Source: a virus
Lineage: Duplodnaviria > Caudoviricetes
Length of the DNA: 64,000 bases
Strand: one strand, 5' to 3'
Virus record (IMG/VR): IMGVR_UViG_3300047576_000104
Location: 1 to 64,000 of that record
Shown: piece by piece, positions 2,594-62,423 of the stretch
How positions within the stretch are numbered: the first letter of the stretch is position 1
Layout: every line of letters begins with the position of its first letter
Program-made: the position numbers and the translations under genes
The notes under the pieces: model-generated
Told to the model about the DNA's origin: nothing
Database searches by the model: none
The model's input: only the letters and a program-made list of their open reading frames with translations

Positions 2594-2620
2594 GATGGTT
2601 ATCCCCCGTGACTGTCTTTA

Positions 2621-2659
2621 GGTCAGGCAGCCTTCCGACCCCCGTTAGGCTGCCTGACC
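2621..2659 (+). terminator. 13-bp perfect inverted repeat (terminator-like hairpin)
   Basis: GGTCAGGCAGCCT (2621-2633) / AGGCTGCCTGACC (2647-2659) in the intergenic gap; no strong U-tract. Confidence 0.55.
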
Positions 2660-2689
2660 GTACTATGTCTGCGATAGGATGGAAGTGCC

Positions 2690-3640
2690 TTGAAGATTCT
2701 TGTCACCGGAGCCGCAGGCTACATCGCCGGCCATCTGATCCGTGAACTCAGTTTCCGGGGGCATAGTGTCAGGACTCAGGACATCGCCCCTGGCCCTGAC
2801 GTGGATAACGTGTTTGACTTGGCCGATTATCGTGAGCGAAGTCGCTGGCTGGAGTTCCACAGCCCGGATATGGTCATTCACCTGGCCGCCCTGTACGGGA
2901 GGGTCTGGGGCGAGAAGAACCTGAGCAGGACCGTTCAGGCTAATACGGGAATGACAGCTGAATTGGCCAGGGATACCGCACGTGCCGGTGCGAGGCTCAT
3001 GTTCATCTCATCGAGCGAGGTGTACGGGAAGACCGCTGATCAGCGCGGTGATGTCCTGACGACCATGCCGTTGCTGCCCCTGAATATGTACGGGCTGTCC
3101 AAGAAGTGGGGTGAGGAGGCGTGCCAGCTGTACGCTCCGGATGGCCTGATGATCACCAGGCTGAACATGCCCTACGGGCCGGCGGCTGTTCTCCCCGATC
3201 CCGGCACCGTTCCGCGCTTCTCGGGCCGGGCAGGGGTACTGGGGTACAACGCGCTGCACACCATGCTGTGGGCGGCGTCTCACAGCATGCCGATCACCGT
3301 GCACAAGGGCACCGCTCGCTGCTTCACGTACGTAGGCGACACCTGCCGTGGCCTGGCCATGATCGCGGAGTCCGGTTACGAGGGCGTGTGGAATGTCAAC
3401 CGGAACGACGATCATGTCATCATGAGCACGCTGGCTGAGTGGTGCAGGGCCCTGGTGCCCGGCTGCGCTTCGGAGATCACCGAGGAAGAGCCTCCCGGGC
3501 AGGTCACCCTGCGGAAGAGGCTGGATAGTGACCGGCTGTGGGAGATGGGCTGGCGTCCGCAGGTGGATCTGGTTGACGGCATGAAAATGACACTTGACTA
3601 CGTGTCCAGGTACGATCGTGATGGACGGTGGCAAGGATGA
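2690..3640 (+). CDS. NAD-dependent NDP-sugar epimerase/dehydratase (extended SDR)
   Basis: ILVTGAAGYIA, HLAA, SSSEVYG, YGLSK (YxxxK), R.FTYVGD. Confidence 0.92.
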   Translation: MKILVTGAAGYIAGHLIRELSFRGHSVRTQDIAPGPDVDNVFDLADYRERSRWLEFHSPDMVIHLAALYGRVWGEKNLSRTVQANTGMTAELARDTARAGARLMFISSSEVYGKTADQRGDVLTTMPLLPLNMYGLSKKWGEEACQLYAPDGLMITRLNMPYGPAAVLPDPGTVPRFSGRAGVLGYNALHTMLWAASHSMPITVHKGTARCFTYVGDTCRGLAMIAESGYEGVWNVNRNDDHVIMSTLAEWCRALVPGCASEITEEEPPGQVTLRKRLDSDRLWEMGWRPQVDLVDGMKMTLDYVSRYDRDGRWQG

Positions 3641-4266
3641 CTCTGATATCGGTTGTCATTCCAACAGTCGCCGGGCGAGAGGATCATTACCAGCGCTGCG
3701 TGGAGGCGTACCTGTCTAGGACTCGCTCATGCAGGCCGGAGATAGTCACGGAGCTGGATCATCCGTCGTGCGGGCTTGCCTGGCAGGCAGGTGCGGAGCG
3801 GGCAAGCGGGGACATCATCCACCTCACCTGTGATGATATCGAGCCGCTGGATGGCTGGGACATCGCCGCCATGGAGGCAGTGGAGAGGCACGTCCTGCCC
3901 GGCCCGCTGGTGCGGCAGGCTGGCTCCCTGGAGCCGCAGTCGTGGGGGCACGAGCTGCCGGACTGGTCTCCCGTCAAGATGTCCACCCTGGCGTTCATGA
4001 CGAGAGATCTCTGGGAGCAGGTGCAGCCCCTGTTCACGGCCCATTATTATACAGATGACTTTATAAGCGAGCGGGCCAAGCACGCTGGCTGGGATATTCA
4101 AGTGGTGCACGGGTACTCGTTCCTGCATCACTGGGCACAGGTTAAGAGAGGTGCCGGCTTTTCCGAATTTGATCGCATGCTGCACGATAAGCCTCTCTTC
4201 GATCAGGCCATGCAGATGGTATCTGCCGGGCAGTGGACAGAGCCGTGGCCCCGGGAGGGCATGTGA
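3637..4266 (+). CDS. Glycosyltransferase, GT-A fold (GT2-like)
   Basis: ISVVIPT, ASGDIIHLTCDDI (DxD-like), YYTDD, HHW motifs. Confidence 0.8.
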   Translation: MTLISVVIPTVAGREDHYQRCVEAYLSRTRSCRPEIVTELDHPSCGLAWQAGAERASGDIIHLTCDDIEPLDGWDIAAMEAVERHVLPGPLVRQAGSLEPQSWGHELPDWSPVKMSTLAFMTRDLWEQVQPLFTAHYYTDDFISERAKHAGWDIQVVHGYSFLHHWAQVKRGAGFSEFDRMLHDKPLFDQAMQMVSAGQWTEPWPREGM

Positions 4267-5027
4267 TATTTGATTGTGTGATGTTCCGCAATGAACTCGA
4301 TATGCTTGAGGCGAGGCTTGACTACTTTGAGCAGTACCCGTATGTCCTGCACGTTCTGGTGGAGGCTCCTGTCACTCATCGGGGCGCACTAAAGCCCCTG
4401 CATTTCTCGGAGAACAAGGAACGGTTCAGGAAGTGGGAGTACCGGCTTCTTCCTCTTGTCTGCGAGAGCATTGTGCCTCCGGGCATTTCTGCCTGGGACC
4501 GGGAGCATATTCAGCGAGACTTCGCTCAGGGGTTCATAAGCCCTCGGACTGGAGATACGGTACTCATCTCCGATGTGGATGAGTTTCCGTCTGAGGAGTT
4601 CATGAACAGCGGCCTGCCTAACGCGCTGACTCCGAGGATCACCCTGAACCAGAAGCTCAATCTTTACGCCGTGGACTGGGAAGTTCCTGTCGAGCATGTG
4701 TGTCAGGTCGCCGTGACCGGTGATGAGCTGGCAGGAACCAGCCTCTCGCAGCTCCGCGATAACCGGCTCAGCTATCCGCGCTTCGACGGTGGTGGCAGGC
4801 ACCTGACCTGGCTGGGAGGCGTTGAGGAGCAGGCATACAAGCTCGCGGTTACCTGTCATGAGGAGATGCGTTCCGACGAGCGTTACCGGATCGCCTCAGG
4901 CGAGTGTTACCGGACAGGCATCCATCACGCGGGCGATTTGCAGCTGAACGCTGTTGATGTGGATGAGACCTGGCCTCGGTACATCCAGGAGCGCAGATGC
5001 CCTGAATCATGGTTCCGGCCGCGATGA
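4263..5027 (+). CDS. Glycosyltransferase family 17-like (MGAT3/GnT-III-type GlcNAc transferase)
   Basis: IFDCVMFRNELDMLEARL, VLVEAPVTHRGALKPL, WDREHIQRD, ISDVDEFP, GGRHLTWLGG...KL...H.E match the GT17 consensus. Confidence 0.85.
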   Translation: MIFDCVMFRNELDMLEARLDYFEQYPYVLHVLVEAPVTHRGALKPLHFSENKERFRKWEYRLLPLVCESIVPPGISAWDREHIQRDFAQGFISPRTGDTVLISDVDEFPSEEFMNSGLPNALTPRITLNQKLNLYAVDWEVPVEHVCQVAVTGDELAGTSLSQLRDNRLSYPRFDGGGRHLTWLGGVEEQAYKLAVTCHEEMRSDERYRIASGECYRTGIHHAGDLQLNAVDVDETWPRYIQERRCPESWFRPR

Positions 5028-5287
5028 GTGAGACGTGCGGTGATTGTGAAGAGCCGATCTGGTGGGAAGACCGGCGTAACGGCTGGGAAAATAAGCATGG
5101 ACAAGCCTGGTGCAAGGGACCGGACGGGACTCGCCCCATCTGGGAGCAGCAGCATGCCCCGAAAGGCAGCTTTCCTGTCCGTGTCCGGAAGCCGGAGGGT
5201 CAGGTCTGCCGCTGCATCGCCGCTAACCGCGAGCACATTCACCGCCTGGAGATCCTTCCGGACGGTGCTGAGCTAAGGGCAAATTAG

Positions 5288-5659
5288 ATGAAGGCGATCA
5301 TTTGCGTCATGGGCGGAGTCCACATCATCTCGCCGGATCCGTCTCCGGTCGTGTGGGTTGTATGTCAGTGTGGCGGTTCGGCGGTTCGGTGGGAAGATCC
5401 GGAGGCCGGCAAGCTTGTCGTGGCGACGCAGGATAAGACCAAGGTCTACGGGCTCGGCCTGAACAATTCTCTTCTCAGGGCGGCGCTGAGTGCCCATGGT
5501 CAGACGTGGGAGGGTTACAGGGCTTGGCATGATACGGCTACGGACGCCCCCGGCTATGTATTTGATAAGTCCCGTGCCGGGTGCTGGGCGGTAGTCTTCG
5601 CTATTGGCTCGACTAGCGACACGCGGTGGGCTTCTGCTGAGGAGAGTCCACTCAAATGA
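5288..5659 (+). CDS. Hypothetical protein (CxC motif)
   Basis: Abuts neighbouring genes. Confidence 0.5.
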   Translation: MKAIICVMGGVHIISPDPSPVVWVVCQCGGSAVRWEDPEAGKLVVATQDKTKVYGLGLNNSLLRAALSAHGQTWEGYRAWHDTATDAPGYVFDKSRAGCWAVVFAIGSTSDTRWASAEESPLK

Positions 5660-6204
5660 AGCCTGACGGCGCTGTTCGCCTTTATAGGATTCCCATGACG
5701 TTCCGGCAGGGCGCGGCCTGGGTGGGCCAGTGGCACCGGCATAACAAGCCGCCGCGAGGCTGTAAGTTCGTGGTTGGGGCAACTGATGCCGAGGGTACTA
5801 TTCACGGGGTGGCTATGGCTGGCAGGCCCATAGCCCGGTCGTGTGATGATGGTCTGACACTTGAGGTCTACCGATCTGTGACGCTGGACGACGGGCCGCC
5901 AAATGTCAATAGTTTCCTGTATGGCGCGTGCTGGGCAATAGGCCGTGAGATGGGGTACCTGCGGTGTATTACCATGACACAGGGCGACGAGCCTGGGACG
6001 TCATTGATAGCCGCCGGATATCGCTTGGTGGGTGAGCGTAAGGCACGGGGGAGCTGGATGGATTCTACTTCTGATGATCGGCTGCGCAAGATGCGTGATC
6101 CGGTAGGTAACGGCGGTGTACCACGTAAGGCGTGGGATGCGCTTCGTGACTCAGACGGAGTAGGGCCGATTCTTGCAGTCCAGTCTCTGCGAGTTAAGCC
6201 ATGA
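5656..6204 (+). CDS. XF1762-family (Mom-like/GNAT-related) protein
   Basis: PMTFRQGAAWVGQWHRHNKPPRGCKF, GVAMAGRPIAR..DDGLTLEV.R, SFLYGA, E.GTSL.AAG. Confidence 0.75.
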   Translation: MKPDGAVRLYRIPMTFRQGAAWVGQWHRHNKPPRGCKFVVGATDAEGTIHGVAMAGRPIARSCDDGLTLEVYRSVTLDDGPPNVNSFLYGACWAIGREMGYLRCITMTQGDEPGTSLIAAGYRLVGERKARGSWMDSTSDDRLRKMRDPVGNGGVPRKAWDALRDSDGVGPILAVQSLRVKP

Positions 6205-6955
6205 ACCAGATCATCACGTTCACTGCTTATAACCGGCCTCACTATATGAACCAAGTGCTGGAAAGCTGGTCTCATGTACGCGATGTCAGCGAGGCGCACT
6301 TTGATTTTCATGTTGAGCCCGGGTGCCGGGAGATGGAGACAGTTTGCAGCTATGCTCCTCGCACTGGCTCGTCTGTGCATGTCAACGGAAGCCGCCTGGG
6401 CGTGCAGCGGAACCCGTTCGCAGCGATCAACTGCGCGTTTGACCGCTATCTGCGAGAGAGTCACGTTCGAGAATCCAGGAAGACTTCGTGATCCTGGCGG
6501 AGGACGATTTCGTCGTGAGTACTGACATCCTGGAGTGGTTCTCCTGGGTCCGGCAGGAGTTCTATGAGGATCAGCGTGTCTTGTGCGTGTCGGCCAGCCA
6601 GCACGAGAAGCAAGGAGACCTGGCAGACTCCTTGTTCCTCCCGTGGTTCCCCGGCTGGGTGTGGGGCACCTGGCGGGACCGGTGGCAGAACCTGATCGCT
6701 CCGGACTGGACGTTCGATTACGAGCACCGGGGCTGGGACTGGCGGCTCACCGACTACTGGTGCAAGGAGAAGGGCATGGTGTGCGTTGCGCCGGCCGTGT
6801 CCCGGACTCAGCACATCGGGGAGCACGGCGGCGTGCACACGATCCCGGGCCAGTGGTTCCTCGATCAGCAGTCACGGTGCTTCGAGCCTGAGATCCCGCC
6901 GCAGCAGTACCGGCGTCCGGACGGTGTGTCGGACATTCCCAACCCGCGAGGCTAG
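6201..6955 (+). CDS. Glycosyltransferase family 13-like (GnT-I/POMGNT1-type), frameshifted near 6460-6485
   Basis: TAYNRPHY in ORF 6201, then FVILAEDDFVVSTDILEWF, VLCVSA, PWFPGWVWGTWRDRW, WDW, C.APAVSRTQHIG in ORF 6488 follow the order of GT13 motifs (EDD, CVSAW, FFPGLGW, WDDW, P.ISRT..FG). Confidence 0.7.
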
Positions 6956-10582: not shown

Positions 10583-13279
10583 GTGACTAACGCACTGCCC
10601 ATTCAGGGAGCCAGCTCCAACGTCTGGGGCACGCTGCTCAACAACTGGCTCCTGGTCGCGCACAATGCTGACGGCACCCTGATCAACCTGGTTCCGACCG
10701 CTGTCCAGACGGTTAACTACACTGCCTCGGCCGGCCAGCTGGTGACGATGGACACGACCAGCGGGTCGTTGACGGTCACCCTGCCTGCTGCTCCTGAAAA
10801 TGGCACACCGCTTTGCGTGAAGATGGTCACGCAGGGCTACACCAGCGGAGTACCGAATACGGTCACTATTGCTGCTGCCGGATCTGATGTTTTCGAGAAA
10901 CCAGGCGGGGTGACGTCTGTTACCTTGAAGCTGTCAGGGCAGGGCAAGGTACTTCAGTACATCTCTGGTATCTGGACCACGACCTCCGATGACCTGCCCC
11001 TCGGGCAGTTGGATAACAGGTATCAGTCTGTCTTTAGTGTGCTCAGCTATGGTGCTGACCCGACGGGCGTCGCAGATTCCACTACGGCTATCCAGGCTGC
11101 AATCAACGCAGCAACAGGTTCAGCTAACCCGGTAACAACAATCAGAACTCCAATCTCTCCAGTGTACATTCCAGCAGGAATTTACAAGATCACAAGTGAT
11201 CTTGTCATCCGTTCAGTAGAAGCGTTTCACTTGATTGGTGCCGGACAAGATATTGTTCAGATTAAACCCTCTGGAACTAATTTCGTGCAGGCGGCGCTGT
11301 TCATTAACGGTAGTGCAGATAGTCTTTTCGAAGGGTTTCTCATTCAGGGTGACGGTACTGAGTCGCTGATTGATGCGATCCGCCTGGATTGGGTAACGCC
11401 AACGGCGCGCAGTGACACCCTCTGCGTCACCAACTCTACTGTGACTGTTGCCAACACCAAGTGCAATGGATATGATGTCGGAGGCACTGTTACCGGTACT
11501 GGTATCCCAGCTAGTACTACGGTGGTTTCCGTTATCCCCGGAGTGAGCTGGACCCTCAGTAATGCTGCTACGGCAAGTGGAACTGTAACGCTTTCTATCG
11601 CAACGCTGTACGCTGCTGCAAGAAGTACCACTGGAAATAGATTCAGAGACGTTCGTGTAAAGAGCACAAACTTCGTTACCGGTATCAGCCTTGAAGGTAA
11701 CGGCTCTGTGCAGGTTGACGGAACTGTTTTTGATAATGTCGTGGTCTCTGGAAGCCAGGCACAGGGGACGTGGAGTAACACCACGTACTGGCAAAACGGT
11801 TTCGCTCTCGGGAACGGTTCTTTCGGTAACAACTACGACCATGAAGCCTTCGGTTGTGACGCTAGCGCCTGCATCAACGGCTGGAAAGTCAATGCTAGCT
11901 CAGTTGGTCTTTTCGGAAGTCAGCCGGCGGGAAACTTCACTGACTTCAATATCGTGCCCGGAGCACAGTGTACCTTTGAGAACATTCAGTCTCAAAACTG
12001 CAATAGGTTTATCAGTACTATTAATGCGTTCTCTCCGATTCCGGTTTCTTTCCGCGACTGCCTTATCAAGACGACGTATGCCAATGCTTCCGGAATTTTG
12101 GCTAATATTTTCGGTGGAGTGTGGCATTTCGATAACATCAGTGCTGTACCATGGCAAATCGCCGGCAGCGGCGTTTACTCTGGAGCAATCTTCAGTATTT
12201 CAGGGAGCGCGGCGAACCGGCCGAGCACAGTTACTTTCGACAGCATCGTATGCGGGAACACCAAGGTTGCGTGCATTGTCCCTACTGGAACATTCCCTGT
12301 CACTATCAATTCCAGAAATTTTGTCAACTATAGCAGTACTACCGGGAACAGTGCCGCCCCGGTCGCCGGGGACATCAGCTCGTTCTGGTCCGGAACCGGG
12401 TCCGGCGGGGCCTGGACGAATACCGACTCTGGCTCCGTGGTTATCGCGCCGCAGGTCAACTTCTTTACGGCCAACGGAACCTGGAACAAGCCAGCCGGAG
12501 CGGTCACGGTTCACGTAACAGTCCTTGGAGGAGGCAGCGGCGGCGGCGCAGGTGCTTCAGGGACGTCCGGGACAGTACAGTGCGGTGGCGGTGGCGGCGC
12601 TGGAGGAGTGCTCCTCTCACGGGAATTTGTTGCTTCCGACCTGCCATCAACCGTACCTATCACGATCGGCGGTGGCGGCAACGGCGGGGCTTCTGTTACC
12701 GGGTCATCAGGCAACACCTCGGGTACTGCAGGCAGTTCCGGAGTGCAGACCTCGTTCGGTTCGTATCTCACCGGGCAGCTGGGCTACCCCGGATCTGGTG
12801 GCACTACCACCTCGGGAACCGGTGCCGTCTCCATTTACGGCGTTGGCGGAGGCAACACAGGCGGCGGCGGCTCGGCGTCTGCAACTGGCGGAGCAGGCGC
12901 GCAGCAGAACCAGAATGCGCTTCCTGGCGGGGTGGGCGGTGCGCCAGGCGGCGGGATCACAACCGGGGCTGTAGCGGGGGCTGGCGCGGCAGGCACTAAG
13001 CCGCTTATCGCCAACGACGCTATTGGCGGGTCCGGCGGCGTGGTTGGCGGAGCGTCACCTACCAGTGGTACCGCCTCTGCTCTTGCCAATGGCTCGGTAG
13101 GGCCATCTGCCGGCGCTGGGGCAGCCTCGACAACCGGTGCGGCGCAGGCGGGCGCGAATGCCCTGGCGAACAGCGGCGCAGGCGGCTCAGGCGGCGGAGC
13201 CTCACTCAACGGGTCGGCATCTGGCGCGGGCGGCAACGGCGGTTCCGGCTGGGTCCTCGCCATCACGTATTTCCAGTGA
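10583..13279 (+). CDS. Tailspike / receptor-binding protein with pectate-lyase-like beta-helix and Gly-rich C-terminal domain
   Basis: SVLSYGADPTGVADSTTAIQAAINAA...VYIPAGIYKITS (Pectate_lyase_3 N-cap); FTANGTWNKPAGA...GGGSGGG Gly-rich domain. Confidence 0.85.
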   Translation: MTNALPIQGASSNVWGTLLNNWLLVAHNADGTLINLVPTAVQTVNYTASAGQLVTMDTTSGSLTVTLPAAPENGTPLCVKMVTQGYTSGVPNTVTIAAAGSDVFEKPGGVTSVTLKLSGQGKVLQYISGIWTTTSDDLPLGQLDNRYQSVFSVLSYGADPTGVADSTTAIQAAINAATGSANPVTTIRTPISPVYIPAGIYKITSDLVIRSVEAFHLIGAGQDIVQIKPSGTNFVQAALFINGSADSLFEGFLIQGDGTESLIDAIRLDWVTPTARSDTLCVTNSTVTVANTKCNGYDVGGTVTGTGIPASTTVVSVIPGVSWTLSNAATASGTVTLSIATLYAAARSTTGNRFRDVRVKSTNFVTGISLEGNGSVQVDGTVFDNVVVSGSQAQGTWSNTTYWQNGFALGNGSFGNNYDHEAFGCDASACINGWKVNASSVGLFGSQPAGNFTDFNIVPGAQCTFENIQSQNCNRFISTINAFSPIPVSFRDCLIKTTYANASGILANIFGGVWHFDNISAVPWQIAGSGVYSGAIFSISGSAANRPSTVTFDSIVCGNTKVACIVPTGTFPVTINSRNFVNYSSTTGNSAAPVAGDISSFWSGTGSGGAWTNTDSGSVVIAPQVNFFTANGTWNKPAGAVTVHVTVLGGGSGGGAGASGTSGTVQCGGGGGAGGVLLSREFVASDLPSTVPITIGGGGNGGASVTGSSGNTSGTAGSSGVQTSFGSYLTGQLGYPGSGGTTTSGTGAVSIYGVGGGNTGGGGSASATGGAGAQQNQNALPGGVGGAPGGGITTGAVAGAGAAGTKPLIANDAIGGSGGVVGGASPTSGTASALANGSVGPSAGAGAASTTGAAQAGANALANSGAGGSGGGASLNGSASGAGGNGGSGWVLAITYFQ

Positions 13280-35840: not shown

Positions 35841-36609
35841 GCTACGTGCCTTGGTCGCGTGTGAGATGTCCGCTCGTGTTCGTACGCAGTTTGCGCTACG
35901 CGGGTGGGATGCCACGTCAGCTGACCTTCTGCCAGATGAGGCAGAGATCTGGGCGGAGCCTGGTCAGCCTGTAGCCGGCAAGCACTACCAGGGTGACGTG
36001 CTGGACATCATCGAGCAGGACTGGGACCTGGTGATCGCTCATCCGCCATGCGAGGATATCTCGCAAGCTGGCGCTCGCTACTGGGCTCAGAAGCAGGCGG
36101 ATGGCAGACAGCAGGCAGCGGCTGATTTCTTCATGAAGATGATCGACCTGCCACCTAAGACGGCGTACGTGGCGGTGGAGAACCCGCGAGGCATCATGAC
36201 CAGACTGTACCGCCCTCCGGATCAGGTGGTGGAGCCCTGGTGGTTTGGTGATCCGCTGCGTAAGAAGACATGTTGGTGGCTGCGAGGCAAGGACATTCCG
36301 TGGTACAAGAACGATTCGCCTTTGGATGAGCGTGATCTTCCCTCACTGCCCTTGCTCCGCGCTGACCGGATGGTTGATCCTACTGGCCGTGTAGCTACTG
36401 GCGGTGGGTCATGGAGGACGGATACTACCTCCGGAAACAATGATTCCGGAGGTAGGCGCGCAGGCGGCGTTGTGCCTAAGGGAAGTAATGCTTATGAAGA
36501 TAGTCAGGGGCGTGCACGCAGGAAGATCTTGCGGTCTGTTACCACGCCCGGAGCGGCTAGGGCGATGGCGGAGCAGTGGGGCTCGTACATCGAGAGTAGG
36601 CGTGGATGA
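35827..36609 (+). CDS. Phage DNA cytosine-methyltransferase-like protein
   Basis: LVACE.S..VR..F...G, WDLVIAHPPC, AVENP, PWWFGD...KKTCWWL. Confidence 0.75.
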   Translation: MSQRKLRALVACEMSARVRTQFALRGWDATSADLLPDEAEIWAEPGQPVAGKHYQGDVLDIIEQDWDLVIAHPPCEDISQAGARYWAQKQADGRQQAAADFFMKMIDLPPKTAYVAVENPRGIMTRLYRPPDQVVEPWWFGDPLRKKTCWWLRGKDIPWYKNDSPLDERDLPSLPLLRADRMVDPTGRVATGGGSWRTDTTSGNNDSGGRRAGGVVPKGSNAYEDSQGRARRKILRSVTTPGAARAMAEQWGSYIESRRG

Positions 36610-51265: not shown

Positions 51266-54138
51266 ATGTCTGACTGGAGCCCGGAAGCTATCAGCAAGTT
51301 CATCAACACACATGCCTATAAGCTAGATGGCCCGGCCCAGTGGGCAGGAACAGAGCCTAACTCCCGGCATAAGGATTGGGATTCAGCATCGTTCCGGATG
51401 CTCATGGCTGCGTCCTGGCCTTACGATCAGGCGGCTGGTAATCAGTCGATCCCTGCTGTGTGGAAGGCAATCAATGATCGACGAGCCGATTACCTATGCG
51501 ATCGGTACTACCTTCCAGCTACTCCCAGGGATATGCGCATATTCGAGCGGTCAGGTGTTCCTGTTTTTGGCATCGAGTCAAGGCACCCTCTCCGCGATTT
51601 CGATGTGGTGGGGACCAGCATCTCTTACGTTGTTTTGCTAGTTAATTTCACGAAATACCTGTCCATGTCAGGTGTGCCGCTGCGCTGGCGTGACCGTGTG
51701 CCGGAGGAGCACCCCATGATCATGATCGGCGGGCAGGCGTTCTGCAATCCGGAGGCCATGGCCCCGGTAGCCGACTGCATCTTCGTCGGTGAGGCTGAGG
51801 ATGAGCCGGGTAATGGCGGCATTGGGCAGGTCTGCCGGATGATCGAGATGTTCAAGAAGGAAGGTATCTGGAATGAAGATCGTGTCGCTTGCTATCAACG
51901 GCTTGCCCGTACCTTCAACTACCTCTACTTCCCGCGTTTCGTGGATGTGCGATACTCCGTGGGGTCCGGCCTGGACGGAGCCCCTACCAAGGCCGTATCC
52001 GGATATTCCAGCCAGCTAGACGGGATGCGGATGCCGTTCCGCAAGCGGCACGTCATCGACCTGGACAAGATCAAGCCGCTGGACGATCCGCCGCTGCTGT
52101 ACGTCGATCCGTCACTGGGCTCGGGTGATTTGGAAGCTCAGCGGGGTTGTCCGGCTTGGTGCAGCTTCTGCAGACTTTCTTTCGCGCAGAAGCCCCCCCG
52201 GCAACGCTCGGTGGGGTTCCTGACAGAGTTTGCGCAGCGGCTACAGCGCAATGTTGGTGGTGTGGAGATTAGCCCGTTCGGTCCAGATTGGCCATTTGTT
52301 ACCAACAAGAACCAGGTTCTTAAGTCGTTGCTAGAGAATGTCACTGACAAGACAGATACCGTGGCTCAGCGAGTTGACGACTTTATCAGTGATGAAACAT
52401 ATCTAGTCCTTCAGGCAGTTGGAGGTGCACGCTCTATTACCCTCGGGCTTGAGGGCGTTAGTCAGCGGATGCGTGACTTGGTTGGCAAGGCCACGTCTGA
52501 CGCTGAGGTGCGCGAAGCTGTCACTCGTGGCATCCGCGCAGGGTTCAAGAAGTTCAAGCTGTTCATGATCGTCGGCCTGCCGGGGGAGGACACCGGGGAC
52601 GTGGCCAGGATCATGCAGTTGGCCCGTGACCTGGCAGACATTCGTGATTCGCTGGCTACTGACAAGGTGCAGATCCAGTTCAGCTTCACGCCGCTGCTAT
52701 ATGAGGCGCAGACTCCTTTCCAGTGGTTCCCTACGTGGCCGGTGCCGGACCATGACCTGATTGACGTGGCCAATGAGCTGAAAGAGCTGAAGATCTTGTT
52801 CAAGATTGGCACTAAGGCCGAGACGAATAAGGTTCACTTCTTCCAACTCTGCCAGAGGGCCAGCCGGGACGCGGGCGAGGCCATTATCGATGTTCTGGAA
52901 GAGATGGACATGGGCTGCTGGGGAGGCGTGCCCAAGGACATGCAGGCAAGGCTGGATGCTGCCCTGAAGAAGCGACGGCTTTGTTAATGGGTTCGGTGAT
53001 CTGTTCGGGGAGCGTGACCGTGGGGACATGCTCGGCTGGGAGTTCATCGATACGGGCATCAGCCGGGACCTGTTGTGGAACACGTTCGTCAAGATGCGCG
53101 AGTTTGCTGAGCGCACTGATAGCGCTACCTACGATACGAAGTTTGATGAGAGGTACCATGGGCAAGAGTGGATCGACCGATGTGACGAACGCTGTATGGG
53201 CCAGTCATGCGGCGTATGCACGGGAGAAGATCTGCGACTGCGGAAGTCATATCTTGGAGCGGCAACTGCCGACCGGGCTGTATCGGTGCGGGATGTGCAA
53301 GCCGGTCGATCAGACCACCGTTGCCGTACGTGTCCGCGCTAGGCTGGCACGTCCTGCCGAGTTCCGCTACGCCGACAACGGATTCAGGCGACACCTGCTG
53401 CGGCGTGCCGGATACCGGGCTCAGGAACTGCTCGGCGGGCCGTGTGTGTCCAAGAATGCCATCTGGTTCGCTTCCGATGCCCATGGTTACCGGGACTGGA
53501 CCTTCGGCACTGATTACGTGGACTTCGGCCTGACGCGGCGCATCCGCAGGCTGAACAATGCCGAGCATGACTGGATGATGAAGCTCCGGACTGAGCTGGC
53601 ACCGTGGCTGGAGCTGAAGGAGTGGCAGGTCTATCCGGCTACGGTGTCCATGCGGTCAGCGTCGGGGGCCAGCCTGCACGAGCTGGAGATCAATGACGCT
53701 CCCGATACGGTTCGCGCCCGGCTTCGTGACTGGGAGATGTCCGAGCACGTGAAGCTCCTGATAAGGCAGGAGGGGTCCTACTTCGCGGCGGCCACCGAGG
53801 AGGTCAACGCGAAGGACTACGTGGATGACCTCTGGCTGGTGCGGGACGGCACCCGGCTGCTGCTGAAGATGCTCGCCAGGCACCGGGCAGGTCCGTACCA
53901 GGTGTACCAGGCGCTCATGAGCAAGCCGAGCTGGATCGAGGCGGCCCAGTTCCCGGCCCGCACCCTGGACGTGTTCTCGTGCCGTGATGAGTTGGAAGGG
54001 AGAGTGTGCCCGCGCTGCGGCAACTCTCTCCCGGAATCACTGATAGGCATCCAGTGGGATGGTGTCTACTGCGCACGGTGCAAGGATGAGCGGGCCAGGA
54101 TCGTCCTGGCCGGCCTGACGAGGGAGACAGTCGGATGA
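51266..54138 (+). CDS. Radical SAM protein, TIGR03960-like, fused to a TIGR03936/DUF2344-like domain; frameshifts near 52975 and 53295
   Basis: FGIESRHPLRDFDVVGTSISY, GGQAFCNPEAMA...GEAE, RGCPAWCSFC (CxxxCxxC), SQRMRD..GK, KLFMIVGLPGE, TPFQW, WEFIDTGISR..LW, CGVC, then RARLARPAEFRY...LLRRA. Confidence 0.82.
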
Positions 54139-56017: not shown

Positions 56018-57151
56018 ATGAATCTTGCGCTCGAATTCCGTCCCCGCAAGTTTTCTGACATAGCAGGCCAGCCATGGGTCAGCCTGGTGCTGGACATGAT
56101 GGTGCGCGAAAATGAGGTGCCAGAAGCTCTGATCTTCCACGGTGTCCGTGGCACAGGTAAGACATCAACCGCGCGAATCCTCGGATCGGCGCTCAACTGC
56201 GAGGAAGCAGGAGAGCGTCCTTGCCTGGAGTGCGGTTCGTGCAAGTCGGTGCGCAGCGGCAATTCGGTTGACGTGATCGAGGTGGACGCGGCTACCAATG
56301 GCCTGGCAGAGGATATTCGTCATTTGTGCGACATGGTGACTTATGACGTCGGAAGTCGCAATCGCGTGGTAGTGCTGGACGAGGCACACGGTGTGACGAA
56401 GAAGGGTTTTGATGTCCTGCTCAAGACATTCGAGGAGCCTCCCCCTCGTGTGACGTTCGTGCTCGTCACCACTGAGCCAGCGCAGATTCCAGAGACGATC
56501 CACAGCAGGGCCACCAGCTTCGGATTCAGGCGAATTGGGTTGAGGCACATCATCGAGCGGCTCGTGATGATCCGTGATGCCAAGGGCCTGATAGTTGAAG
56601 ATGACGTGCTCGCTGCTATCGCTGACCGCGCGGATGGCGGGATGCGCGATGCGATCATGCTGCTCGATCAGGCGTCCCGGGCAGGTGCAGGGACGCTGGA
56701 GCGCTTCTACGCGCAGACTGGAGAGGGTGACTTCGCTCCCGGTCTCTTGTCCATCATGGCGTCAGGCCGCCTGGGTGACTTGTACGAGCACCTGGAGCAT
56801 CTTGTCTGCGAAGTAGGCGACTGCCGATTGATTGCAGCCAGGATTGTCCGTTGCTTGCGGGATATCCTGGTGCTGCACGCGGGAGGCAGTACTGTCATTG
56901 CTCAGGGTGAGGCGCTGGCAGCTCGGATGAGCCTCGCGTCCCGTCTTACGGATGTGCAGGTGGTCGGAGCGATGCGCGTTTTCTGGGACCTGCAAAAAGT
57001 GCAGTCTGGTAATGATCCGCGCATGGTTCTTGATCTTGCCTGCGTGATGGCCAGTGAGGCGTTCGCTCCTCAGCGCCAGGCGGTATCAGTGCCTAGCAAC
57101 GGTCATCGGAAGGCGACCATGAACGACATCACGGCGCTTATCGGATCCTGA
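56018..57151 (+). CDS. dnaX: DNA polymerase III gamma/tau clamp-loader ATPase
   Basis: LALEFRPRKFSDIAGQ, GVRGTGKTSTARI..LNC, PCLECGSC, EVDAATN, LDEAH, LLKTFEEPP, TTEP..IPETIHSR, DGGMRDA..LLDQ. Confidence 0.95.
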   Translation: MNLALEFRPRKFSDIAGQPWVSLVLDMMVRENEVPEALIFHGVRGTGKTSTARILGSALNCEEAGERPCLECGSCKSVRSGNSVDVIEVDAATNGLAEDIRHLCDMVTYDVGSRNRVVVLDEAHGVTKKGFDVLLKTFEEPPPRVTFVLVTTEPAQIPETIHSRATSFGFRRIGLRHIIERLVMIRDAKGLIVEDDVLAAIADRADGGMRDAIMLLDQASRAGAGTLERFYAQTGEGDFAPGLLSIMASGRLGDLYEHLEHLVCEVGDCRLIAARIVRCLRDILVLHAGGSTVIAQGEALAARMSLASRLTDVQVVGAMRVFWDLQKVQSGNDPRMVLDLACVMASEAFAPQRQAVSVPSNGHRKATMNDITALIGS

Positions 57152-57312
57152 GAACCTCGGAGGCCAAGTGGATCCCCTCAGAATACTTTTGGTTAGGTGC
57201 AAGCAGCACGGCAACTGTCCTCTTAAGTTTGTTGTGTTTGCTACGTCAGTTGGTTCAGATCTTCGTAGGGAGAGCTGTTCTGGATGTGGCTGTGCCATGC
57301 TAGAGGTTGTTC

Positions 57313-58323
57313 GTGCCTAGTGGTGAGAACAATCGCAAGCTGTCTGACGCTCAGGTGGATGAGCTGGTTCAGCAGTACCTAACTAGGTTGCCAGATGGCA
57401 CTTGGAAGGGCGCTACTTTGCTGGCTCGTGAATTTGGTGTTAGTCAGCCTGTTGTCTCCAGGTGGCTTCGTATTCGCGGAGTCAGTATTCGCTCAGCGCA
57501 GGAATCACATTCTGGAGGCAAAGCATGCAAGCCAGTTAAGAACCTGCCTGTTGGCGAGCCTCCAGTTTGTAAGTGTGCTTGTGGTCAGTTGACTGCGTGG
57601 AATCGTCGTAAGAATAGGTGGAATGTCTATGTGCCAGGGCACTATGTAGGGTCTCAGCGTGTAAATAAAGGGAATACTGGCGGCGTTGGCCGTGGGGCAA
57701 ATAAGGGTCGGGCCGACGATCTTCTTTACAAGGATAGGGTTTGGCTAGACAGAGAGTATACTATCCTCTGTCGGAGTTCGGCTGATATAGCTAGGCAGTT
57801 CGGTGTTTCTTCTGGTTCCGTGCGTAGGTATCTAGATAAGTTTTCTATTCCCAGGATCGTGGATAATTCCAGGAAGGGCAGGAGCGGTCCCGATAACGCT
57901 GCTTGGCGTGGTGGCGTGTCTGAGTTTGAGTACTGCTCTGACTGGAAGGCACTAGCAAGGTCTATCAGGCAGCGAGATAAGTACACGTGTCAGGACTGCG
58001 GTGAGTGCCGTAAGAACTGGGGCATTGCTCTGCACGTACATCACATCGATTGGGACAAGCAGAACAACGATCGTAGCAATCTGGTATCACTCTGTACGGT
58101 GTGTCACAGGGTCCGGCACGGCGGGAAGCGTCTCCCCAAGACACAGCTAGGTAAGGTGCCGTACGCCGTAGACAAGACTTGTCATCAGTGCGGTAGTACA
58201 TTCATGTCCAATCGATACGACAAGACCAGGCACTGTTCTCAGTCGTGTGCGGCTACGTGCCAGCACGCAGGGCTTTGTCCGGCTAAGGGGGTGGTTAACG
58301 GTGCGTATACTTCTAGTCTCTAA
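57313..58323 (+). CDS. HNH homing endonuclease with HTH/Zn modules
   Basis: [13 protein letters not shown]...[26 protein letters not shown]; AT-richer than flanks. Confidence 0.88.
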
Positions 58324-59558
58324 TGCCCCATGGGCATGCACTGGTTATTTATGGCACTCAGATTAGCCAGTTGGCTATCAGGCTGAAAGCTGCCGGTCAT
58401 AAGGTGGCCCTGTTCGCCAATCATGGACTCAGTGGCGGAAAGACCGAGTGGAACGGCATACCTGTTTACCCCTCTGCCATTGATCCCTCTGGCAGCGATG
58501 TCCTTCACGGTCATGCCAATGACTGGAAGGCTGACGTGGTGATCATCTTGTACGATGCGTTCGCCATGAACGGTCAGGTCATTGGGCGGCTGTCACAGCA
58601 TGTCTGCTTCTGGCAGCCAGTGGACTGTGAGCCGCTCGGTCGGGGAGACAGGGAACAGCTTAACGCTTCGGGTGCTCGGACCATCGCCATGAGCAGGTTC
58701 GGTGCGCGGATGCTGAAGGAAGGCCGGGAAGGTGTTGGGCTGGATCCTATGTACGCGCCGCACGGGATCGACACGGAGAACTTGTTCGTGCCAGCGGAGC
58801 AGCAAGTGACGAGCAACTTCGTTGTTTCAAGGGAGAGGGCTAAGAACATTCTGCGTGAGCAGGAGAACATCCCGGAGGATGCTTTCGTGATCGGGATGAA
58901 CTTCCACAACAAGGACTCCGAGCGCAAAGCAGCCTGGGAGCAGATGAGCGCGTTCGCTCTCTTCCATCACAGGCATCCCGACACCCTGCTGGTGCTGCAT
59001 ACCATGCCGCATCCGGTGATGAGTGGCCAGGATCTGATCGGCATGGCTGACTTCCTGGGCCTTGGGTCCTGCACCCGGTGGGCGGATCCGTACAGCCTCC
59101 TCGCTGGCAACTACACGCAGGAGGACATGGCAAAGTGGTATGCCCGGCTGAACCTGTACTCCGGGGCGTCTCGCGCTGAAGGATTCGGCCTGCCATTGAT
59201 CGAGGCGCAGGCGTGCGGTGTTCCGGTGGTGACGACCAATGCTTCCGCCATGACAGAGCTGGTTGGCTCTGGCTGGCTGGTGAGCGGTCAGCCTTACTGG
59301 CACAAGGGGCAGCAGGCGACCTGGATTACCCCGGACATAGGGGACCTGGTAGTCGCTTACGAGGAGGCGTACGGCGGTCAGGCTGAGGCCAGGTCGGATG
59401 CCGCCCGTACGTTCAGCAAGAGGTTTAATGCCAACGTGGTGTTTGATATCTACTGGAAGCCGATCCTTACTCAGCTAGCAGAGATGCTTGAAGAGGGCGT
59501 TCTCCGAGACGCTGACCAGCAGCGAATCGTGCGGAGCGCAGCAGGGCAGTCAGGGTGA
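58301..59558 (+). CDS. GT-B glycosyltransferase (GT4); frameshift near 58350
   Basis: [18 protein letters not shown]; PHGIDT; [20 protein letters not shown]. Confidence 0.9.
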
Positions 59559-59783
59559 TCAGCAGTAAGATGGCAGAAAGCCTATCTCGATAGGAGTTGC
59601 TGTGACAGATACGCCTGAGCCGGAGGTTATGTGCCCAGAGGGCTGCGGGTGTCGTCTTGGCACTGAGGACGCTGACGCTCGTGAGTGTGGCTGTGACGGC
59701 CCCTGTACTGGTGAGACTGAGCCGCAGCCTGAGGTCAGGCATGTCTCTGATGGGGACTTCGGCTTCGGGGTGGCTGGACTACA

Positions 59784-60221
59784 ATGACAGGCGCGGCGGT
59801 TACTTCCGGTGCCGGCAAGGATCTGGTCTTCAGCCAGAGGCCGCAGGATCTTCCTGATGCCAAGTACGCCATGTGGGATGCCCTGATCACGGACATGCGC
59901 CGGGAGTCCGCCGCACTGCCCATGAACACCATGATGACGCTGCTGATCGAGCGCATCGCCACCATGTACGTGATGGTCAGGTTCCGTGAGGATGCCGGGG
60001 AGACGGACTGGGATCAGCTGCGCGGGATGCAGAAGCTCTGGCTCAACTACATGACGGAGTTCGCCTCTCAGTTGCAGCGGAACAGCCAGACCCCTGAGGA
60101 GCGGTTCCTTGCCAGGTTCAAGGCCAGCGTGACTGCTGCGGTGCGCAAGGTAGGCCCGGAAGCCACGGTGCGCGAGCTGCTGCCCGTCCTTGCGGAGGAG
60201 CTGAGTGAGTACGGTGTATGA
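59784..60221 (+). CDS. Hypothetical helical protein
   Basis: 145-aa ORF with coupled ends. Confidence 0.55.
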   Translation: MTGAAVTSGAGKDLVFSQRPQDLPDAKYAMWDALITDMRRESAALPMNTMMTLLIERIATMYVMVRFREDAGETDWDQLRGMQKLWLNYMTEFASQLQRNSQTPEERFLARFKASVTAAVRKVGPEATVRELLPVLAEELSEYGV

Positions 60222-60974
60222 TGCGTAAGAAGTGCAAAGCTTACTGGTGGAGGGGTACCCCGAACTTCGGAGATCTTCTGGCTCCCCTGCTGCTCGATCG
60301 CTACGCCGGCATCAAGGCTGAGTGGGCCCCGATCTGCGGTGCCAGTATTGTATCTGTCGGTTCCATTTTGGAACATGTCGCTCCATTGTGGCCCGGGTAC
60401 ATCATCGGCAGCGGCAAGCTGTACGAAGACAGCCGACTCCACCTGCACACGGGCACTGCGACGATCCTGGGCGTACGCGGGCCGCTCACCGCGAGGCAGT
60501 GCCCGCCCGGTACCCAGATGCTCGGCGATCCCGGTCTCCTGGCGGCCGAGCTGATCGACGACCCGGAGCCAGAAAAAACCTACGACCTCGGCATCGTGCC
60601 GCACTGGTCGGACGCGCATCTCGCCACGGACAAGCGCTTCTTCAGCGATAACTGGCACACCCAGGTTATTGATCCGACTCAGGACCCGATGACGGTCATC
60701 TGCCAGATCAGCCGCTGCCAGAAAATCGTCACGTCCAGCCTGCACGGGATGATCATCGCGGACAGCTTCGGCATCCCGCGCCGGTTCGAGCCCGCCAAGA
60801 ACTGGGATCAACAGTCAGGGCGGCATGTTCAAGTTCCGTGACTACCTGGCGTCGATCGGTGCCCCCTGGGTGGTGGGTGAGCAGACTACGGTCAGTCGTC
60901 TTGCGGTGGCCGACAGATGTTACGAACTCCTGGACGCGTACGACGAGCTGGGCAGGCTGGTGCGCAAGAGATGA
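60218..60974 (+). CDS. Polysaccharide pyruvyl transferase (ExoV-like); frameshift near 60820
   Basis: NFGDLL, VGSIL, GSG, VRGPLT, GDPGLL, LGIVPHW, TSSLHGMIIADSFGIP, then FKFRDY in the next frame. Confidence 0.85.
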
Positions 60975-62423
60975 AACGTTTCTTGGCGTGGATGAAAGGA
61001 CTTTTCTTGAGTCTCACAGGTCTGTTCAACCGGCAGTTTCGGCGTGGGCAGGGTATATCTCTCCTGGTACCGTTCAGGTCAGACGGCGCGCACCGGAACC
61101 CGGGTCTGGGAGTGGCTGCATGCCTACTGGGAGAACGAGCTACCAGGCGCCGAGATCGTCATGGGGCCAGTGACGAGCACAGACCCTTCTGCAAAACAGC
61201 TGCAGTCAACCGGGCATTCCGGGACTCGCATGGTGATGTTGTCGTGATTCTGGATGCTGACTGCTATCTGCCAGGCAGCGTCATCCTCGACTGCGCCAGG
61301 CGCATCCGGAGTGCGCGGCGGCGCGGCAGGAAGCTGTGGTTCATCCCGTATCGTCTGCCGAAAATAAAACACACTCATCACTGACTACTCTCAACCACAG
61401 ATGGCCAGTGATCACGCGTTACGGAAAGAGGGTCTGGCGCACATCAGCTACGCTCGATTCACATGACCGAATCCCTGTCGCAGCTGAATGCGCAGACTTG
61501 CCAACCACAGCTAAGTACAGCGATGACGTCGTCGCTCTGGCCGGGTGGTTCTGGACGGAAGGGCATATCCGACGCGATGTAAGTATTAATATTACCCAGT
61601 CGCAGGACGTTCATCCGGAGAACTGTGCAAAAATCGAGGCATCTCTGACTCGCCTGTTTGGTCCTGAGGTCCGTGTTTCTCCCGGACGGCCTCTCGGTCA
61701 TGCTTCTCCACGTTGGCAGCAAAGCGGTGACCACTTCTTGCTGAACTCCGCAGCAAGCGAGCTGCTGCTTGAGCTGGCCCCCGGAAAAGTTCCAACTCGC
61801 GAATTCTGGTCATCAAAACGTCCATGCTCGGCGACGGTTCGAAAAAAGGAACAGGTCCGCGTAGCCGCAGCGGTGCAGCTCTTGAGCAGAAGAACCCTCT
61901 TGCAGTAGAGGCGTTTGCCTTCGCTCTTATCCTGTCCGGACGAGACGTCTCCCTCACCACCAGAGGGACACCGGCTCAGCGGACAAGATTCAACTACCAC
62001 ATGACTGTCGTGAAGATCCACGAACGAGTACTTCGAGGCATCGTACCGGTTAGCAGGGCAACGCCCCGCGGTATGGATGGAACGTTCGAGAGGGTCAGCT
62101 ACACGGGCGACGTCTGGTGTCCAACAACACCTAACGGAACGTGGCTAGCTCGTCGGAACGGTAAGGTCTACTTCACGGGTAACAGCGAAGACGTCTCGTT
62201 CATGATCGCCGTCGACACGCTGTACACGCTGCACCGTACGACAGGCAACGGCGTGTTCCATCTCTGGCACCCGCACACTGGCACCGAGCACTTCGAGCGC
62301 ATGTGGGAGGGACAGGCTGCTCCGGGTGCTAACAACAAGCTGGCTACCTACTACTCGATGGCACGCGGGCGGTCTAAGAGGATGCGCGCTCTCACTCGCG
62401 AGCCCGGTGCAGGCGAGCTTTGA
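60971..62423 (+). CDS. GT-A glycosyltransferase (GT2/GT7-C-like) interrupted by an intein; several frameshifts and an apparent deletion
   Basis: ISLLVPFR, PFCKTAAVN, GDVVVILDADC; C-extein SEDVSF...FHLWHP. Confidence 0.75.
61360..62183 (+). mobile_element. Intein with LAGLIDADG motifs; N-terminal block A missing
   Basis: TTLNHRW (block B), LAGWFWTEG, MLGDGS, DVWCPTTPNGTWLARRNGKVYFTGN|S. Confidence 0.8.

Follow-up and report, generated by a model that had tools for sequence, protein, structure and literature searches.

This analysis concerns a candidate glycosylation pathway of a tailed phage (Duplodnaviria; Caudoviricetes) found in the window, that is, the first 64 kb of the 100,988-bp IMG/VR record IMGVR_UViG_3300047576_000104. 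The window has ~60% G+C with nearly every gene on the + strand, and the record carries the IMG/VR label 'provirus' with an estimated completeness of 72%. Near-identical DNA was present in many peat and permafrost metagenomes of 2019-2025, and contigs from three other peat metagenomes (X1, X2 and X3) were used for comparison between strains. The genes in question form two distant groups, cluster 1 at 2690-6955 and cluster 2 at 58.3-62.4 kb, with the following features.

2616..2677, + strand: terminator-like GC-rich hairpin, then a GCGATAG promoter-like motif (read from the sequence)
2690..3640, + strand: NAD-dependent nucleoside diphosphate (NDP)-sugar epimerase/reductase, an extended short-chain dehydrogenase/reductase (SDR) (PF01370, 1.3e-28)
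3628..4266, + strand: small GT-A glycosyltransferase (GT), GT2-like, intact, 212 aa (predicted fold)
4233..5027, + strand: GT17-like GT-A glycosyltransferase, soluble, ~250 aa, intact (PF04724)
5009..5659, + strand: two small open reading frames (ORFs) of 92 and 123 aa inside the operon (sequence)
5656..6204, + strand: XF1762-family or 'Mom-like' acyltransferase-type gene, 182 aa (NF045478)
6201..6955, + strand: GT13-like (GnT-I/POMGNT1-like) GT-A glycosyltransferase, split by a frameshift within 6441-6481 (PF03071)
58323..59558, + strand: GT4 (GT-B) glycosyltransferase, intact (PF13692, 3e-11; PF00534, 3e-10)
60218..60974, + strand: polysaccharide pyruvyl transferase, frameshifted near 60810 (PF04230)
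60971..62423, + strand: GT2/GT7C-like GT-A glycosyltransferase with the remains of an intein and an internal deletion, spread over three frames; a pseudogene here (PF00535)

A first-pass annotation had read cluster 1 as an epimerase followed by GT2, GT17-like and GT13-like genes. The PF01370 match confirmed the epimerase, whose product also matched RmlD_sub_bind (4e-19) and phrog_540 (nucleotide-sugar epimerase) and shared 54% identity with a protein encoded on a 132-kb relative (L013:2661-3617). It reached no NCBIfam equivalog, so its sugar specificity is left unassigned. For the next gene, Pfam and PHROG searches returned no match. Its 212-aa product belongs to a tight family of 73 homologues of ~210 aa, a few of them with PF00535, in which D69 and D70 are invariant. 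The AlphaFold2 model (pLDDT 95.2) showed a GT-A fold, and Foldseek against the PDB retrieved ppGalNAc-T2 (E 1.7e-8, TM-score 0.65) as well as majastridin, WrtF and K4CP, while a profile of the family searched against PDB sequences gave a best E of 0.34. With the predicted fold and the invariant DD pair, and no Pfam match, the label 'GT2' is acceptable in the sense of a GT2-like GT-A enzyme. In the divergent X3 strain, a 27-nt in-frame insertion follows position 3880 inside this gene; the X3 contig departs from the window after 4261 and rejoins it at 6255, and the segment from the GT17-like to the XF1762 gene may have been replaced there.

The assignment of 4233-5027 as GT17-like proved correct, with 61.8 bits against PF04724 (cut-off 26; 8e-17; profile positions 74-219 of 348). 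The family has more than 370 homologues of ~250 aa, all those listed carry PF04724, and in 24 aligned sequences (alignment A1) the residues D114, D116 and E117 of a D-x-D-E motif are invariant. Since the protein is only ~250 aa long and has no transmembrane segment, it does not show the type II membrane topology of GT17. DNA searches with 2690-6955 gave no match, tblastn with the GT17-like protein gave none in 50,697 phage records, and a viral scan with a single GT17-like sequence returned nothing. When the PDB sequences were searched with the GT17 profile, no relative came up.

The GT13-like gene occupies two ORFs in two frames, 6201-6491 for the first half and 6488-6955 for the second. The latter matched GNT-I PF03071 with 32.8 bits (cut-off 25.4; 4.3e-8), over the second half of the domain only, and begins exactly at the EDD motif (VILAEDD). 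The split amounts to a net +2 nt within 6441-6481: X1, X2 and X3 are without two single bases (6461-6477) and read in one frame, so an uninterrupted GT13 catalytic domain exists in these three contigs and not in the record. An intact 263-aa orthologue (L013:11219-12010) aligns with both ORFs. Although its Pfam GT13 match alone was below threshold, phmmer placed it with human POMGNT1 (5ggf, 2.7e-8), and the structural check proposed for this gene came out in favour of a GT13 fold: with the orthologue's model (pLDDT 72), Foldseek ranks 1-7 were all POMGNT1/GnT-I structures, followed by GnT-II, with E values for the GT13 matches of 6e-14 to 5e-11 and TM-scores up to 0.72. The family named in the first-pass annotation therefore holds by Pfam, phmmer and Foldseek of the orthologue; the gene itself is frameshifted here. 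On another relative (L003:11359-12867), a GT13-like GT-A domain is fused to an FkbM methyltransferase (502 aa).

Within cluster 1 lies one further gene, 5656-6204, which the earlier list of otherwise correctly named enzymes had left out. It matched NF045478 with 151.7 bits and phrog_1384 ('Mom-like') at 8e-29, while BLASTP against Mu Mom showed no clear homology (E 0.06). The X1 contig joins 5659 to 6219 through 14 other letters, a loose end of X2 is consistent with the same junction, and the gene is missing from the operon of L013. Because the variant contigs pass from 5659 straight to the GT13-like gene, the XF1762 gene is an optional insert outside the core pathway. The stretch 5288-5659 is retained in the variant without it. 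Homologues from the XF1762 family occur widely in phages of both Proteobacteria and Actinobacteria; those of M. abscessus prophages sit among early and DNA genes. The two small ORFs at 5009-5659 had no Pfam, PHROG or NCBIfam match; protein atlas leads were weak, and none was usable for the 123-aa ORF.

In cluster 2, the expected GT4 gene was recovered through PF13692 and PF00534; it belongs to phrog_2170, has homologues in the isolates phiPsal1, Mae-JY09 and TJE1, and adjoins the epimerase in L013. The pyruvyl transferase was likewise assigned to the right family, with 38.5 bits against PF04230 for 60218-60841 (cut-off 25.3; 1.7e-9), but it is not full length in one frame: one nucleotide is lost in an A run near 60810, and the last ~50 residues are encoded in another frame (frame 0; 60813-60974). 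A break sited in an A run resembles a sequencing error. Homologues are ~250 aa long, and one of them (P0194) is intact at 251 aa and 99% identical. We rejected the idea that the enzyme had been split off ORF 59784-60221, since it has its own N-terminus; that ORF is unrelated and has only a weak DUF3987-like lead.

The gene 3' of the pyruvyl transferase, previously described as another GT-A enzyme, is GT2/GT7C-like by family and turned out to be an intein-bearing, deleted remnant. PF00535 matched at 61193-61312, and among 73 homologues the uninterrupted GT2/GT7C-like forms of 260-320 aa, which carry PF10111/PF02709, match 61030-61354 (N-terminal) and 62187-62402 (C-terminal). In several metagenomic homologues, among them P0327 and P0351 with a full intein, the insertion lies inside the GWG|GED motif (alignment A3), with a Cys start, a TxxH block, two LAGLIDADG-like motifs and the end ...TGN|S. 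The window copy is without ~120-135 aa, comprising the middle of the GT-A domain and the N-terminal intein block; its frame changes near 61354 and 61806, and the remnant insert spans 61354-62186. Neither the window ORFs nor the full-length homologues gave a Pfam intein or LAGLIDADG match for the insert, and the intein call is that of alignment A3. To our knowledge, glycosyltransferases have not been reported as intein hosts.

To detect frame switches, we compared the record by blastx with single-ORF homologues. In addition to the one in the pyruvyl transferase (60787-60813), a radical-SAM gene (52966-53284) and a terminase-like gene of 658 aa (record 65362-65793, equal to L082:3362-3793) each contained two. 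The record is thus indel-rich, through assembly error or decay, and the disrupted GT13-like gene and pyruvyl transferase pair are either assembly errors or true decay. Sibling strains from the same habitat have the GT13-like gene in frame, and the epimerase, the 212-aa GT-A enzyme, the GT17-like enzyme and GT4 are full length in the record itself. The earlier count of five glycosyltransferases stands as five recognisable genes, of which three are intact in the record; because of this, the description of the system as more elaborate than cassettes of one to three glycosyltransferases was overstated for this record. An indel-rich record also bears on every split-gene claim for this genome: other such readings, namely Rad50 in three genes and a split methylase, may be artefacts or decay and need checking.

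We then turned to the gene neighbourhoods of relatives. The GT17-like family profile found 177 IMG/VR viral stretches, and 78 loci were analysed. Within 6 kb of the GT17-like gene, a GT4 homologue occurred in 62 of the 78 loci, Methyltransf_24 in 64, and head, connector or tail families in 53. A capsid gene upstream together with a connector or tail gene downstream was seen in 28 of the 78; among the other loci, many lie on contigs too short to show both flanks. The commonest form of the GT4 partner is a GT4+GT2 fusion of ~620 aa (e.g. L016:5361-7244). A recurrent order, exemplified by L016, L020 and L047, runs terL, portal, protease, HK97-type major capsid protein (MCP), GT4/GT2, GT17, one or more methyltransferases (MTs), head-tail adaptor, tail terminator and major tail protein. 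The same order was found on contigs from actinomycetotal metagenome-assembled genomes, Mycobacterium and Ilumatobacteraceae included, and on one binned as Gammaproteobacteria; the hosts of these phages are probably Actinomycetota.

The two clusters of the window are linked by L013, where the counterparts of GT4 and of cluster 1 share one operon; it contains GT4, two SDR enzymes, a sugar C-methyltransferase, two GT17 genes, further GT-A genes, a methyltransferase and the GT13-like gene. In other relatives (L006, L008, L017, L053 and L069), with replisome and head genes in common, the region that separates the clamp loader from the packaging/head module holds the GT17, GT13-like and epimerase genes. 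This is where cluster 2 sits in the window, between the clamp loader (56018-57151) and the portal gene (67934-69709 of the full record), with the major capsid gene further on at 77224-78294. Embedding of GT and MT genes in a virion operon is therefore evident for the GT4/GT17 module in relatives and only loose in the window, where the virion context consists of tail-like neighbours for the one cluster and of a position just 5' of the head module for the other.

The pyruvyl transferase behaves differently from the GT4/GT17 module. Its profile found 188 viral stretches, and in 72 of the 79 loci analysed a GT2/GT7C-like GT-A gene lies 3' of it, almost always with a gap of ~0-190 nt. Two homologues, P0353 (856 aa) and P0382 (867 aa), have pyruvyl transferase and GT-A enzyme fused in one polypeptide, which supports a two-step module that adds a sugar and then pyruvylates it. 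GT17 or GT4 genes stand beside the pair in only 0-1 of the 79 loci. Together, the two genes thus form a separate mobile module, and because the pair does not travel with the GT4/GT17 genes, the earlier proposal of a single branched, pyruvylated glycan is not supported.

Transcription signals offer a further clue. The hairpin before cluster 1, of the strong terminator-like type, spans 2616-2660, and the GCGATAG motif lies 12 nt 5' of the first gene, so that a late-type motif precedes the cluster. The same motif is found 7-8 nt ahead of the portal and other head-gene starts, and CCGATAG-like motifs in general occur 2-8 nt 5' of such starts (record 67920, 74336, 79137 and 82452) and at 59588 and 62498 in the window. 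Their position close to start codons suggests leaderless late transcripts. By itself, the CGATAG hexamer shows no enrichment over chance in the window (27 matches vs 23.9 expected).

Taken together, these observations make it most likely, on balance, that the phage-encoded soluble cytoplasmic enzymes attach sugars to proteins of the phage's own capsid and/or tail while the virion is assembled. We prefer this reading because the enzymes are soluble, no lipid-carrier machinery accompanies them, the core module lies in head-tail operons and a proven system has the same layout. No transmembrane segment was predicted in any of the enzymes, and no flippase or polymerase gene was found. The core module would consist of GT4 and the GT17-like enzyme, joined here by the small GT-A and the GT13-like enzymes. 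The retaining GT4 may start the glycan on Ser/Thr of a structural protein, after which the inverting GT-A enzymes (GT13-like, GT17-like and the 212-aa GT-A) would extend it, with the SDR enzyme supplying an NDP-sugar that has been epimerised or reduced. As a separate unit, the pyruvyl transferase pair would add, then pyruvylate, one sugar on some acceptor.

The proven system comes from mycobacteriophages. Virion glycosylation has been shown for Che8, Corndog and Myrna, and the cluster O enzymes of Corndog are reported to modify capsid and tail tube, according to PMC11600133, PMC12363180 and PMC12619734, which cite Freeman et al. 2023. As in the present phages, the mycobacteriophages encode soluble glycosyltransferases, often with methyltransferases, inside or beside the virion assembly genes. 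In Corndog, one MT and three GTs (cassette gp35-38) lie between portal and MCP, a layout that resembles the MCP-GT4/GT2-GT17-MT-adaptor order of the relatives. A phage virion glycosylation cassette is hence already known as a kind, and it is the enzyme families that differ here: in hhalign, comparison with gp36-38 gave E values of 0.1, 0.0026 and 0.21, and tblastn searches with our enzymes found no Corndog or Che8 match. Unlike that of the mycobacteriophages, the putative system of the window also has two distant clusters and a pyruvyl transferase module. Two other isolates are closer at hand. The Pontimonas phage phiPsal1 has the order MCP, GT4, MT, GT2, neck, and the Microbacterium phage Magritte (133 kb, a similar genome size) carries two GTs just 5' of the terminase, where a GT13-like gene stands with a UDP-glucose dehydrogenase. 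In these actinophages, homologues of GT4 (31% identity) and of the GT13-like enzyme (30% identity) adjoin head genes; unlike the phage studied here, both are without a GT17-like gene by tblastn.

The neighbourhoods of the relatives and the Corndog analogy make virion proteins the best-supported candidate target, as the first-pass annotation had proposed. Several points weigh against this reading. No homology to the Corndog GTs was detectable beyond the GT-A fold, and no C-terminal Ser/Thr or Gly-Ser acceptor tag common to the capsid or tail proteins of cassette-bearing phages was seen. Neither cluster of the window is part of the head operon, and the tail-like genes around cluster 1 are weakly annotated. 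The earlier statement that cluster 1 lies directly between tail genes is right as to tail-like neighbours, and it rests on weak PHROG matches only: a minor tail protein at 992-1876 (3e-5) and a tail fibre/spike at 10583-13279 (~1e-8). GT4 is located 5' of the first late-type motif (59588), and the XF1762/'Mom-like' gene sits inside the cluster 1 operon. Three of the seven enzymes, namely the GT13-like enzyme, the pyruvyl transferase and the fifth GT, are disrupted in the record. Apart from each other, the members of the pyruvyl transferase pair have variable neighbours, none in more than ~13 loci (endonuclease VII in 12, portal in 7, prohead protease in 6), and the surroundings of the pair in the Tunturiibacter phage Tunturi_5 are genes for tRNA ligase and DNA methyltransferase. 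Glycans on virion proteins are a probable reading of this gene set, and the best one.

An alternative is remodelling of the host envelope, in which the enzymes would work at the cytoplasmic face on precursors of host cell-wall or capsular glycans, e.g. by the addition or pyruvylation of sugars on secondary cell-wall polymers, to block superinfection, change a receptor or aid release. We consider it unlikely, and strongest, indeed plausible, for the pyruvyl transferase and its GT-A partner. Characterised PS_pyruv_trans members of the CsaB/WcaK type act on polysaccharides, so the PF04230 match places the enzyme in a family with polysaccharide-acting members; the pair forms a self-contained mobile module with variable neighbours that stands outside the structural genes in Tunturi_5, and distant cellular GT17-like genes occur in Alphaproteobacteria without nearby phage genes. 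However, no integrase or serine recombinase was found across the 101 kb of the record, so that lysogenic conversion is unsupported, and the enzymes come with no flippase, polymerase or polyprenyl-phosphate transferase and no transmembrane segments. Moreover, the GT4/GT17 module falls within head-tail operons in most loci, and in 13 of the 79 pyruvyl transferase loci the pair has a portal or prohead protease gene nearby. That the clusters are partly dead cargo, a decaying or mis-assembled copy from which this element would make no elaborate glycan, appears rather improbable. Such a view would account for the frame switches in the GT13-like gene, the pyruvyl transferase, the radical-SAM gene (two) and the terminase-like gene (two), for the internal deletion and frame changes of the fifth GT, and for the 'provirus' label of a record that is 72% complete. 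Yet near-identical contigs from several peat metagenomes of 2019-2025 have the GT13-like gene in frame, the intact 251-aa pyruvyl transferase at 99% identity exists, and four genes (epimerase, 212-aa GT-A, GT17 and GT4) have kept their full length; there is no integrase, and the break at 60810 in an A run looks like a sequencing error.

DNA hypermodification, in which the GTs would decorate modified bases against restriction and the XF1762/'Mom-like' protein would be a further DNA-modifying enzyme, has lost ground as an alternative and now seems very unlikely. It has a precedent, since 5-hydroxymethylcytosine (5hmC) DNA is glycosylated by phage enzymes of the GT-A and GT-B folds together with epimerases and secondary GTs (bioRxiv 10.1101/2023.12.21.572611), and a PHROG 'Mom-like' member does lie inside cluster 1, cluster 2 adjoins replication genes, and 28% of the genome is outside the record. 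In phage DNA glycosylation (T4 alpha/beta-GT; 5mYOX/ThyS-linked clusters, Pyle et al.), GT-A and GT-B enzymes occur together as they do here, in some cases joined by epimerases and secondary GTs, but those clusters adjoin enzymes that form hydroxymethylpyrimidines, and none of the ThyS type was found here or in the relatives. The weakening comes from this hallmark: a search whose control worked found no thymidylate-synthase-type hydroxymethylase (PF00303), either in the record or in five relatives, of which four have a completeness of at least 93%. A search for Tet_JBP (PF12851) gave no match either, but its control was equally silent, so this result is uninformative. A C5-methylase-like match to PF00145 was sub-threshold (17.6 bits) and lies far off at 35977-36201. 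Neither the variant strains nor L013 carry the 'Mom-like' gene, whose similarity to Mu Mom is slight at best (E 0.06), and the GT17/GT4 cassettes are flanked by capsid and connector genes rather than by genes for base modification.

Within the virion reading, the enzyme families allow a more specific proposal. Eukaryotic GT17 (GnT-III) adds beta-1,4-GlcNAc to the beta-mannose of N-glycans and has type II membrane topology. The phage enzymes share PF04724, PF03071, the DXD/EDD motifs and the GT-A fold with eukaryotic GT17 and GT13; unlike these, they are ~250-260 aa long and without membrane anchor, stem or lectin domains. GT4, the GT13-like and the GT17-like enzymes might build a cytoplasmic, eukaryote-like O-mannosyl-type glycan on capsid or tail, in which a hexose on Ser/Thr would receive beta-1,2- and beta-1,4-linked N-acetylhexosamine, as POMGNT1 and GnT-III do, and the pair would add a pyruvylated sugar in intact strains. 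This is a highly speculative extension to which we give little credence. If true, the virion would bear a charged coat of glycans with an influence on adsorption or on evasion of defences in peat soils.

Should virion glycosylation itself be correct, phage sugar-coating would be widespread in soil actinophages and not confined to a few mycobacteriophages, and several unrelated sets of enzymes, prokaryote-sized relatives of animal GnT-I/POMGNT1 and GnT-III among them, would build the coats. Our literature search found no description of phage GT17- or GT13-like enzymes, or of phage pyruvyl transferases that act on virions. The compact GT4/GT2-GT17-methyltransferase cassette beside the capsid gene, together with phiPsal1 and Magritte, which can be cultured and have parts of it, provides direct experimental handles. 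In addition, the soluble ~250-aa GT13- and GT17-like enzymes could serve as minimal models of the eukaryotic families, the more so as the search of solved structures yielded no sequence relative for GT17.

For the pyruvyl transferase pair, Tunturi_5, a jumbo phage of Acidobacteriota, provides a counterpart in a known genome: gp300-gp301 are the same pyruvyl transferase and GT-A pair, adjacent and in the same order, at 52% identity, annotated there as 'galactosyl transferases' amid RNA/DNA-metabolism genes. As for the genes that flank the two clusters, a YAcAr/SLOG-family protein (PF10686, 2e-18; phrog_289 'GTP-binding domain') is encoded at 2162-2593, just 5' of cluster 1. On the 5' side of GT4, a 338-aa ORF of helix-turn-helix plus HNH-endonuclease-like type (57307-58323) abuts the gene, and in Magritte, too, an HNH gene separates the two GT genes.

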